This document shows positions 6,246 through 59,073 of a stretch of 64,000 nt of DNA, piece by piece. Positions within the stretch are counted from its first letter, which is position 1. Every line of letters begins with the position of its first letter. This DNA comes from an uncultured Acidimicrobiales bacterium. Lineage in GTDB: Bacteria > Actinomycetota > Acidimicrobiia > Acidimicrobiales > UBA10347. The stretch covers positions 1,495-65,494 of the forward strand of contig CAWUSE010000013.1 of NCBI GenBank assembly GCA_963925805.1, read 5' to 3'. The notes under the pieces are model-generated. The model made no database searches. It worked only from the letters and a program-made list of their open reading frames with translations, and was not told where the DNA came from. The translations under genes and the position numbers were made by a program.

Positions 6246-6359
6246 CAGCTGCACACTAGTAGGAAGGCCTTGCATGGGCAGCAGTGCAGGTTCGCCGCCC
6301 GGCCAACTACGAGAGCCACCGGCAGATCTTCTAGCGTGGTGTGAGAAGACGACGAGAGG

Positions 6360-7520
6360 TTGACTATGGCTGGCGATGAAATGATGCGCGGTGTGGGTGA
6401 CGGCTTGCCCGTTCCTGAGTTCGAGGCTGCAGCGTGGGCAACCCCCAAGCCGCTGGCTGAGGCGACGGTTGCAATCGTGACGTCCGCAGCACTGCATCGC
6501 AGCGGCGATGAAGGCTTCCAGCCTGGTGACACCGAATATCGCCTACTCCCGAGCGATGCTCGCGATCTCGTGCTCGGGCATTGGAGCCCAAACTTTGACC
6601 GGTCTGGTATTGCGATTGACCTGAACGTGGTCTTTCCCATCGATCGGCTCGATGAACTTGCCGCTCAGGGTGTCATCGGTGCCGTGGCACCACGACATGC
6701 ATCGTTTGCCGGCAATCAGCCGGACGACGTTGCGACGATCCGAATCGACTCCGGTCCTCGTGCTGCTGCACAACTCAAGGCTGACGGTGTTGACATCGTG
6801 CTGCTCACACCTGTTTGACCACTCTGCACGCGTACCGTGAGTACGCTTGCCCATGTCTTCGAAGCTGCTGGCATCGCCACCGTCACCTTGGCTGCAACCA
6901 AGTCCGTCGTTGAGCGAATGCAGCCTCCCCGTGCGCTGTTCTGCGAGTTCCCGCTAGGCCGCCCGATGGGAAAGCCTGGCGACGCTGAATTCCAGCACGC
7001 TGTGTTGGCCCGCGCCTTTGCCATGCTCGATGCTGAAACAGGCCCGGTGCTCGAGATCTATCCCGAGGTCATCGAGGCTGACGAGACGCCGTTGAGCTGT
7101 GCCTTGCCGCCTCGATTCGATCCATCGCTTCCGGCGGCCGTCGACGAAGCTAATGGCATGCGCAAGGCGTTCGATCGAGCTCTCGAACGCAGAGGCGTCA
7201 CCTCAGTCGGTCGTGTCGTTGACCCCGATGGGGTTCCGGGTGCCCTGCAGATCTTTGATGACATTGCCAACGGGGCGCTCTGGAAAGAAGCTGGGATTCC
7301 TGGTGGGAACACCACAGCGGTTTGCCACGATATTCGCACGTACTACGAGGAAGCCGCGCTCGAACTGGTCGATGGGCCACCGCCAAGCGGGCGGTCTGCA
7401 GAAGCGTGGTACTTCGAGTCGACCCAGGCTGGCCGAACGGTCATGGCCGCACGAGTTGCGATCAAAGAGCAGGGCGCTCCTCATCCGGTTTGGTTCTATA
7501 TGGCCCCGGGTCACCGTTAG
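6360..7520 (+). CDS. GrdB-family (glycine/sarcosine/betaine reductase component B-like) protein with in-frame UGA, probable selenocysteine at 6816-6818
   Basis: Track ORFs 6360..6818 and 6837..7520 share a frame, and the TGA at 6816-6818 is the only stop between them. Read-through gives ...DIVLLTPV-U-PLCTRTVSTLAHVFEAAGIATVTL... This matches my recollection of the Sec site of clostridial GrdB (U-G-T-C-T-R ... E-x-A-G-I-P-V). The joined length of 386 aa fits a full GRDB domain, and a SECIS-like hairpin follows. Confidence 0.7.
6826..6850 (+). promoter_or_regulatory. SECIS-like stem-loop downstream of the in-frame UGA
   Basis: GCACGCGUAC-CGUGA-GUACGCUUGC forms a 10-bp stem with one C/U mismatch and a 5-nt apical loop containing G and U. 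The loop lies 18-22 nt 3' of the UGA, within the spacing reported for bacterial SECIS elements. Confidence 0.45.
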
Positions 7521-57081: not shown

Positions 57082-59073
57082 GTGACGATGATGGCGCTGA
57101 TGCTGGGAATCGACACCGGTGGCACGTTCACCGACGCTGTCCTTGTCGACGATGGCGCCAGCAACGCCGTCGTGGCGTGGGCCAAGGCGCCAACCACCCA
57201 TCACGATCTGGCTATCGGCGTGGCCGGCGCCGTGCGAAATGTTCTAGCCAACGTGGGTTGTGAAAGCGCTGCCACCATCGCACTGGTGTCGGTCTCGACG
57301 ACATTGGCGACCAACGCCTTGGTTGAAGGGCACGGCGAACCCGCTGGTTTGTTCACCTTTGGTTTCTCTCGCGCCGAACTCGAGCGAACTGGGCTGAGTG
57401 TTGCGGTTGGGCCAGCGCTTCTTGTGCCCCTAGATGGTGGCCATGATGCCCACGGAAACGAGCGGTCACCCCTTGACCTGCGCGCTATCGAGCAGCGAGC
57501 CTGGGAGCTCGCAGGTCAGGTGTCCGCCTTTGCGGTTGCTGCTCAGTTCAGCGTGCGGAATCCCGGTCATGAACAAGAAGCAGCCGAGTTAATTCGCTCG
57601 GTGACTGGCTTACCCGTGACATCGAGCCATGAACTCAGTGCGAAACTCGACGGCCCCCGCCGCGCGCTCACTGCCGCTTTGAACGCACGCCTGCTTGGGA
57701 CGATCGACCGTCTTAACGTGGCCGTCGCCACGGTTCTGGCCGACAACAGCATCGATGCGCCACTCATGGTTGTGCGAGGCGACGGATCGCTAGTCTCGGC
57801 TGCCTTCGCTGGAGCCCGCCCGATTGAAACCATCTTGTCAGGCCCAGCGGCCAGTGTGGTCGGGGCTCTGCATCTTGCAGATTTACGTGAAGGCTTGGTA
57901 GTCGACATGGGCGGTACGACCACCGATGTTGCCGTGATCGTTAACGGGCGTCCGTCGATCACCGATGGGGGAGCGGTGGTGGGCAGCCACCGCACAATGG
58001 TCGAAGCGGTCGACATGACCACGGTTGGGTTGGGTGGTGACAGCGAGGTTCGCATCGACGCCACCGATGTTCTAGGCCCTGTTCTGCTTGGCCCCGAGCG
58101 AGCGATTCCGATCAGCCGTCTTGCCCTCGACTATCCGTCGGTCCATGCTGTTTTGGACCGTCAACTTGCCTCTTCTGGGTCGTTAACGAGCGACGGCCGT
58201 CTCTTGGTGTCCACCGCTCCAGCTGATGTTGAAATCAGCGATCTTCGTGAGGCTTCCGTGCTTGCCCGACTGGCATCTGGCCCAGCGCCGGTTAGCGAAG
58301 TAGCGACGTCTGCGCTGGAACAGCGCGCTGCTGTTCGGCTCCAAGCGCGTGGTCTCATTCGCGTGGCGACGATGACGCCGACCGATGCCAGCGCAATCGT
58401 GAATTTCGTGCCCAATGTCGATACCGAGGCGGCTCGCAAGGTCGCCGCGATCCTGGCACGGCAGATGAACCCGATGGGGGGTGTCGTGGCCGACCAAGCG
58501 ACGGCCTTGGCCCAACTCGTTATTGAAACGTTGAACCGGCGTTCTGCTGACTTCGTGTTGAGGGTTGCTCTCGACGCAGACGATGTCGACCATCGTGGCG
58601 GCGACGGCCTTCTTTCGGCATCTCTGGCCGGTCACCGCAAAGTGACGACTGTGCAGATCTCGCTGAGTTCGCCGCTAACCGCCATCGGGGCTCCAGCGGG
58701 CGCGTATTACCCGGCTGTTGCAGCGCTGGTCGGGACTTCAGCGTGCGTGCCGGATCACGCCGATGTTGCTAATGCAGTTGGCGCTGTTATTGGTCAGGTA
58801 CGGGTGCGTCGTAGCGCGACGATCACACAACCAAGTCGAGGCCAATTTCGGGTCCATCTGGATGGCCAGCCAACTTTTGGGTCGGTGGAGAATGCCCGCG
58901 TTGCGGCCAGAGACCTACTTCAAGTTGCAGCGTTAGTTGATGCTGAGTCTGCAGGGGCTTCGACGCCTGAACTGACCGAGACGTGGCAAGAACGCATTGC
59001 CCATATGAACGGCCAGGATGTTTTTGTTGAAGGCACGCTGACAGTTGAAGCATCTGGCCGTCCGCGCTTCTAG
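57082..59073 (+). CDS. hydantoinase/oxoprolinase-family protein (HyuA-like)
   Basis: 663 aa. N-terminal LGIDTGGTFTDAVLVDD (ASKHA phosphate-1 motif) and a second GGTTTDV motif. The start could be one of the nearby in-frame Met codons. Confidence 0.85.
   Translation: MTMMALMLGIDTGGTFTDAVLVDDGASNAVVAWAKAPTTHHDLAIGVAGAVRNVLANVGCESAATIALVSVSTTLATNALVEGHGEPAGLFTFGFSRAELERTGLSVAVGPALLVPLDGGHDAHGNERSPLDLRAIEQRAWELAGQVSAFAVAAQFSVRNPGHEQEAAELIRSVTGLPVTSSHELSAKLDGPRRALTAALNARLLGTIDRLNVAVATVLADNSIDAPLMVVRGDGSLVSAAFAGARPIETILSGPAASVVGALHLADLREGLVVDMGGTTTDVAVIVNGRPSITDGGAVVGSHRTMVEAVDMTTVGLGGDSEVRIDATDVLGPVLLGPERAIPISRLALDYPSVHAVLDRQLASSGSLTSDGRLLVSTAPADVEISDLREASVLARLASGPAPVSEVATSALEQRAAVRLQARGLIRVATMTPTDASAIVNFVPNVDTEAARKVAAILARQMNPMGGVVADQATALAQLVIETLNRRSADFVLRVALDADDVDHRGGDGLLSASLAGHRKVTTVQISLSSPLTAIGAPAGAYYPAVAALVGTSACVPDHADVANAVGAVIGQVRVRRSATITQPSRGQFRVHLDGQPTFGSVENARVAARDLLQVAALVDAESAGASTPELTETWQERIAHMNGQDVFVEGTLTVEASGRPRF

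Follow-up and report, generated by a model that had tools for sequence, protein, structure and literature searches.

The 64,000-nucleotide (nt) window analyzed here, from contig CAWUSE010000013.1 of an uncultured Acidimicrobiales bacterium, carries on its plus strand one reading frame that runs from position 6360 to a TAG at 7518-7520, with a TGA at 6816-6818 as its sole internal stop, as seen in the translation and the list of open reading frames (ORFs). One ORF (6360..6818, +) stops at this TGA and a second one in the same frame (6837..7520, +) begins downstream of it; translated across the UGA, the frame reads DIVLLTPV-U-PLCTRTVSTLAHVFEAAGIATVTLA, where U is selenocysteine (Sec). With a probability that we put at roughly 0.92, 6366..7520 is a single gene encoding a selenoprotein of 384 residues, in which the UGA is read as Sec151 and a domain of the type found in the D-proline reductase protein PrdB is joined to a helical C-terminal domain (Table 1). 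A preliminary description of this DNA had reported two same-frame ORFs with no second stop between them; the translation of 6360-7520 bears this out, and the read-through peptide given there matches exactly. The product of 386 amino acids (aa) proposed at that time should be shortened to 384. ATG 6366 is most likely the start codon, judging from the sequence GAGAGG 6 nt upstream and from public gene calls on identical contigs, where the upstream piece begins at this ATG and has a 150-aa product; this start places Sec at residue 151 of 384.

Table 1. Features of the predicted selenoprotein gene (positions in the window)
Feature	Position	Strand	Basis or remark
Shine-Dalgarno-like GAGAGG	6354..6359	+	6 nt upstream of ATG 6366; read from sequence
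Complete selenoprotein coding sequence (predicted)	6366..7520	+	384 aa, Sec151, stop TAG 7518-7520
UGA codon, predicted selenocysteine 151	6816..6818	+	TGA conservation, alignment to prdB TGA, Cys column
U-P-L-C redox motif (Sec151...Cys154), putative	6816..6827	+	loop at N-terminus of helix 153-167
Extended Sec insertion sequence (SECIS) hairpin, predicted: GCACGCGUAC / CGUGA / GUACGCUUGC	6826..6850	+	fold of region, pair counts
SECIS core, 6-bp stem 6830-6835 with 6841-6846, loop CGUGA 6836-6840	6830..6846	+	comparative pairing
GTG (Val158), probable wrong start of the 227-aa downstream ORF	6837..6839	+	sits in SECIS loop
PrdB-like alpha/beta catalytic domain, residues ~6-227, spanning the UGA (predicted)	6381..7046	+	TIGR04483, BLASTP, Pfam GRDB
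Family-specific helical C-terminal domain, residues ~241-384 (predicted)	7086..7517	+	helices in model

A scan with one genome per species yielded more than 536 relatives, and the comparisons between species reported here use the best 80 of them, with 64-82% amino-acid identity; these come from Acidimicrobiales, Ilumatobacteraceae and Microthrix-related metagenome-assembled genomes (MAGs), along with a few labeled as Chloroflexi. The TGA lies at exactly the same codon in all 80 of these species-level relatives, in the context V-U-P-L-C-[TS]-R-T. When the relatives are compared with the window by the Nei-Gojobori method, the ratio of nonsynonymous to synonymous change (dN/dS) is about 0.11 upstream of the TGA and about 0.14 on its downstream side, synonymous sites being close to saturation, from which it follows that this frame is translated in both halves. 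TGA is otherwise an ordinary stop, terminating 31 of the 52 long ORFs of the window, including prfA, atpA and rplJ, so that the recoding is local, as had been supposed in the preliminary description, and no global reassignment is involved.

Genuine prdB genes, annotated as such by the Prokaryotic Genome Annotation Pipeline (PGAP), were found in plasmid records with tblastn, and BLASTP aligns U151 with the annotated Sec of the one from Terrisporobacter, the Cys at +3 and the Arg at +5 also being kept. Alignment A1 comprises 36 sequences, 35 full-length homologs among them: about two thirds of these have Cys in the column under the UGA, the exceptions being Gly (6), Ala (2) and Ser (2), while P152, C154 and R156 are invariant in the alignment. 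The U-x-x-C motif noted earlier is thus supported both by the conserved Cys at +3 in prdB and by the invariance of C154. The accompanying expectation, that homologs would have Cys or Sec in the UGA column, stands as far as the Cys majority and the Sec of PrdB are concerned and fails for the minority with Gly, Ala or Ser.

Downstream of the UGA lies a predicted SECIS hairpin, in the place where it had first been described, its G/U-containing apical loop being 18-22 nt after the A of the UGA. Nine of the ten positions of the extended hairpin are paired, with one C.U mismatch. The core stem starts 11 nt after the UGA; with the T of the TGA as position 0, positions 14-19 pair with 25-30 around a loop at 20-24. 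Pairs were counted in alignment A2, which holds 59 distinct sequences, and all six core pairs form in 59 of 59. The pair 6833/6843 (positions 17/27) covaries without exception, being U-A in 22 sequences and C-G in the other 37, and the pair 6832/6844 (positions 16/28) is G-C or G-U; among the lower pairs, G10-C34 and C/U11-G33 are conserved and A12-U32 is formed only in 7 of 59. The third positions of codons T155, T157, V158 and S159 have zero entropy, compared with a mean third-position entropy of 1.54 bits, and no value below 0.05, for 141 other conserved four- or six-fold degenerate codons used as a control. The core is also paired at 6/6 in all 80 Sec-type loci, as against only 2-4 of the six pairs in five non-Sec homologs, one with Gly (GGG), one with Ala (GCT) and three with Cys. 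As judged from these alignments, the hairpin is under constraint at the RNA level, and it is this comparative evidence (pairing, covariation and third-position constraint), not folding energy, that leads us to take it as real. The published model of bacterial SECIS elements (bSECIS; PMC13188914) gives a loop of 3-9 nt whose first two positions contain a G, a stem of 4-16 bp, a spacing of 16-37 nt between UGA and loop, and a minimum free energy (MFE) of -7.5 kcal/mol or lower. The hairpin falls within all four limits, with its CGUGA loop (G then U), a stem of 6 bp, a UGA-to-loop distance of 17 nt and an MFE of -11.9 kcal/mol. The TGA in 80 of 80 species, the alignment to the Sec of prdB and the constraint on the hairpin together uphold the view put forward there, that this is one selenoprotein split by ORF calling.

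As to family, profile scores and alignments indicate that the protein is PrdB-like rather than GrdB-like, and that, by the cut-offs, it belongs only to the broad Pfam GRDB superfamily. The earlier assignment to the GrdB family is therefore revised. The best NCBIfam match is to the PrdB model TIGR04483 (E = 6e-39, residues 21-221 against model positions 17-218 of 238), though its 133.8 bits lie below the curated cut-off of 300 bits and the protein fails the equivalog test; the GrdB model TIGR01917 gives 30.1 bits against a cut-off of 602.2, and various_sel_PB, TIGR01918, gives 37.8 bits against 65.45, both again below the cut-off. More generally, the GrdB, GrdF and GrdH models score 30-47 bits, with cut-offs of 602-800. 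The comparison with Pfam GRDB (PF07355), suggested earlier as a check, gives 25.1 bits against a gathering threshold of 22, with residues 14-148 matching model positions 206-345 of 347. BLASTP against Terrisporobacter PrdB finds 35% identity over residues 6-221 (E = 1e-36). The joined protein had also been said to have the size of a full GRDB domain; it is not collinear with GrdB, and consists instead of a PrdB-sized domain with an extra C-terminal one. Full-length homologs of 380-400 aa cover 98-100% of it. AlphaFold2 predicts the joined chain as a single unit, with a predicted local distance difference test (pLDDT) score of 94.6 and a predicted template modeling (pTM) score of 0.92; in this model a strand at 144-148 is followed by the Sec loop and by a helix at 153-167, and the C-terminal helices lie between 257 and 377.

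The C-terminal domain has no Pfam match, and Foldseek with the model finds no fold match in the PDB at E <= 1e-3; among PDB sequences, a profile search turned up a single chance hit, at E = 0.97. With no PDB match, the fold gives no hint as to function. Of 1.84 billion representative proteins only 201 have the domain, and nearly all of these are either full-length homologs or pieces of 225-235 aa, the length expected of Sec forms split at the TGA. In only two proteins is the length context of the domain very different: P0141 (1019 aa, domain at 699-828), in which no Pfam domain was found, and P0199 (3476 aa, with 11 stretches). Both may be chimeric gene calls or real fusions; a further one, P0185, looks like a chimeric gene call.

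[quoted passage not shown] It differs in being only 241 aa long, whereas the protein here adds a helical C-terminal domain of about 145-160 aa. In the genuine locus on the Terrisporobacter plasmid, prdA is directly upstream of a prdB with an in-frame TGA, while the gene here has no prdA beside it. The hosts differ as well, being Stickland-fermenting anaerobes for PrdB and aquatic Acidimicrobiales MAGs for the close relatives of the present gene. In the Terrisporobacter prdB (L091:2200-2925), the SECIS hairpin is a different and unrelated one, CGCUCUGCAG...CUGCAGAGAGCG, about as far from the UGA as in the gene here; a homologous Sec site thus goes with a SECIS sequence that is specific to the lineage. 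GrdB, GrdF and GrdH (PF07355, TIGR01917/TIGR01918) belong to the same superfamily, their Sec being likewise part of a UxxC motif at the homologous site, and matches cover model positions of about 275-400, but proteins of the GrdB type are about 430 aa long, with some 200 extra residues at the N-terminus and Sec near residue 350, and neither a grdA nor a grdE partner is seen among the neighbors of the gene here. The same full-length architecture is shared by proteins named by NCBI as [quoted passage not shown], from Pseudomonadota, Solirubrobacterales and others. These are 380-400 aa long, and those with Cys are 45-57% identical at 98-100% query coverage, with C-P-x-C in place of U-P-L-C; they differ in having Cys (in some cases Gly, Ala or Ser) for Sec, and in lacking the conserved hairpin.

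It might be supposed that the locus yields two separate polypeptides, one of 150 aa ending at the UGA and one of 227 aa beginning at GTG 6837, which assemble after translation. All public annotations do call two ORFs, and a GTG is available 18 nt past the stop, but inspection of the sequence finds nothing Shine-Dalgarno-like upstream of this GTG, which lies inside the hairpin loop, and the six codons from TGA to GTG (PLCTRT), with the invariant P152, C154 and R156, would go untranslated. The full-length homologs and genuine PrdB are single chains at this point, the match to the PrdB model and the beta-strand/loop/helix unit of the AlphaFold2 model both cross the junction, and all 80 of the 80 species keep the frame; two polypeptides are on these grounds highly improbable. 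Nor is there much to be said for a selenium-free reading of the UGA as a standard amino acid (Trp, Cys or Gly), whether by a suppressor tRNA or by near-cognate decoding stimulated by the hairpin. The failure to find Sec machinery in the window or in the related loci searched and the presence of Gly at the UGA column of some homologs would both agree with such a reading, but TGA terminates 31 of 52 long ORFs, those of housekeeping genes included, experiment has established this position as the Sec site of the PrdB/GrdB family, the hairpin matches SelB-dependent SECIS elements in its geometry and its loop G-U, and selA/B/C/D are documented in the class Acidimicrobiia, in the order Actinomarinales; we consider it a very slim chance. 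A pseudogene, or a premature stop created by an assembly or sequencing error, would account for a single in-frame stop in a family whose relatives include uninterrupted forms, but is effectively refuted by the presence of the identical downstream protein in 154 blocks of the assembly collection and in all six separate assemblies inspected, which excludes an assembly error, by the TGA in 80 different species, by purifying selection on both halves and by the conserved RNA structure 3' of the stop.

Several observations nonetheless weigh against the interpretation of the UGA as Sec151 of a selenoenzyme. In thermodynamic terms alone, a 61-nt segment around the hairpin has z = -1.15, and 28 of 200 shuffled sequences fold as well; no SECIS family of Rfam was matched, even at E <= 10; and each of the two covarying states may be that of one clade, in which case they would reflect one or a few evolutionary events. 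Searches of the 64-kb window and of 1.1 Mb of related loci detected neither tRNA-Sec nor selA, selB or selD, and ARAGORN found no tRNA-Sec in the window and 86 loci, so the Sec decoding machinery of this genome is assumed. In some close full-length homologs the Sec column is occupied by Gly, Ala or Ser; part of the family can therefore do without the Sec residue, and the idea that it is an essential nucleophile is weakened. The catalytic mechanism and the coupling to thioredoxin outlined below are drawn purely by analogy. With regard to the machinery, selA/B/C/D are present in Actinomarinales, another order of Acidimicrobiia (bioRxiv 10.64898/2026.04.03.716425), which gives support at the level of the class only. 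The sole tblastn match to E. coli SelD and SelB, in locus L033, proved to be CysN/CysC.

Among the non-Sec forms, it is Gly, Ala or Ser, not Cys, that fills the Sec column of the closest full-length homologs (52-57% identity); the codon is GGG for Gly in L089 (4557-5705) and GCT for Ala in L090 (6001-7155). The Gly, Ala and Ser forms retain Cys154, and most add a Cys at +8 (T-V-C); as this arrangement suggests, lineages that abandoned Sec may use a C154/C159 pair instead of the Sec/Cys pair. A Cys homolog of 302 aa on a plasmid of Roseomonas haemaphysalidis (NZ_CP061179.1; L092:4869-5777) has the motif C-P-V-C-H-Q-T-C and is without the C-terminal domain; its gene lies tail to tail with that of the protein adenylyltransferase SelO, at a distance of 4 nt.

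Proteins of this kind have been encountered before. In its account of selenoprotein families, the Sargasso Sea survey (Zhang, Fomenko & Gladyshev 2005, PMC1088965) gives "Proline reductase PrdB" as the third most abundant, with 42 Sec forms and 1 Cys form, and the corresponding account of the GOS survey (Zhang & Gladyshev 2008, PMC2398784) has PrdB among the top families, with 235 Sec and 110 Cys forms. The PrdB of these marine accounts shares with the present protein the UxxC motif, a match to pfam07355 and an excess of Sec over Cys forms, and differs in being listed simply as PrdB; the passages in question (PMC1088965, PMC2398784) make no mention of the C-terminal domain, of a stand-alone context or of an Acidimicrobiales host. 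The gene here and the marine-survey PrdB very probably belong to the same family, as matched by description. On the strength of those passages, this is a marine selenoprotein family already known since 2005, of which the gene here is best regarded as a well-documented member, and no new kind of system. What is added here is that its architecture is distinct, that it stands alone and that it is systematically mis-annotated.

The gene is accompanied in the window by a divergently transcribed 2-oxoglutarate-Fe(II) (2OG-Fe(II)) oxygenase, short-chain dehydrogenases, a methyltransferase and ilvD, the remainder of the window carrying housekeeping genes such as secE-nusG-rplKAJL, prfA-prmC and the atp operon. 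None of these window neighbors is conserved beside the gene in the loci of the 80 other species, where no other neighbor is conserved either, and no PrdA homolog was found in 1.41 Mb comprising the window and the fetched loci; the gene therefore stands alone. The largest apparent cluster of conserved neighbors turned out to be an antisense artefact of the gene itself. Nothing informative came from scans for promoters and terminators near the gene, and a scan of the window for other TGA-interrupted frames, based on G+C content at third codon positions (GC3), found nothing credible, such a scan being not discriminating at 59% G+C.

Following established bacterial Sec decoding, SelB carrying Sec-tRNA(Sec) would bind the hairpin and deliver Sec at the UGA, which would then be decoded as Sec151 and not as a stop. 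Homology and the model show a PrdB-type alpha/beta domain that presents Sec151-x-x-Cys154 at the N-terminus of a helix and is packed against the helical C-terminal domain. If PrdB and GrdB are a guide, the selenol of Sec151 would be the nucleophile of a reductive reaction, and Cys154 would resolve this adduct to a selenenyl-sulfide, which thioredoxin or another thiol system might re-reduce. Since the gene is alone and no PrdA-type pyruvoyl partner is nearby, the product is most likely a self-contained reductase and not a proline-reductase subunit; the missing pyruvoyl partner and the extra domain make a subunit of classical D-proline reductase unlikely. A more far-reaching proposal, which we advance tentatively and hold at somewhat less than an even chance, is that the protein is the founding member of a class of self-contained selenoenzymes, in which a PrdB-type Sec/Cys domain is combined with a helical domain that replaces the pyruvoyl partner, and which catalyze a new reductive reaction in aerobic aquatic Acidimicrobiia and in some MAGs labeled as Chloroflexi. 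Such a class, if it exists, would explain the abundance of "PrdB" in oxic surface oceans, where Stickland fermentation is implausible.

The way in which these genes are recorded follows from the UGA. In the protein search, close relatives (70-92% identity, mostly from Acidimicrobiales MAGs) are all 227-aa fragments beginning at the GTG after the TGA, while distant relatives (45-57% identity) are full-length, at 380-400 aa; in all six assemblies whose gene calls were inspected, the gene is split into "hypothetical proteins" of 150 and 227 aa. A rule combining V-TGA-P-L-C-[TS]-R-T with the conserved hairpin would mend hundreds of records and give better counts of marine selenoproteins. The gene would also mark its carriers, widespread marine and freshwater Acidimicrobiales, Ilumatobacteraceae and Microthrix-related MAGs, as selenium users, which complements the recent report of Sec machinery in Actinomarina (bioRxiv 10.64898/2026.04.03.716425). 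This is an annotation fix, with no new recoding mechanism and no new kind of genetic element, though the role of a stand-alone "PrdB" in oxic water, a modest question, becomes testable with these domain boundaries, invariant residues and a confident model.

Immediately downstream of the gene, and on its strand, a minority of the related loci (about 15 of the 80) carry a sulfatase gene (PF00884), for example at L033:8957-11398 and L089:5727-7253; upstream, L033 has cysNC, cysD and a TauE-like exporter. The most frequent neighbor is an AMP-binding ligase, in 13 loci. These sulfatase, cys and ligase neighbors hint, if weakly, at a connection with sulfur or organosulfate metabolism. In the window itself, a 663-aa ORF at 57082-59073 (+) has no exact-sequence match in the assembly collection, other tested window proteins having exact matches in 96-178 blocks; it may be a strain-variable gene or have a mis-chosen start codon. 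Sec-type copies with 64-67% identity occur in MAGs labeled as Chloroflexi or Dehalococcoidia (L074, L081, L082 and L083), which points to horizontal transfer or mis-binning. Implausible labels are also attached to two Acidimicrobiales-like contigs, L049, from a "Bifidobacterium breve" MAG, and P0004, from "Paracrocinitomix sp."

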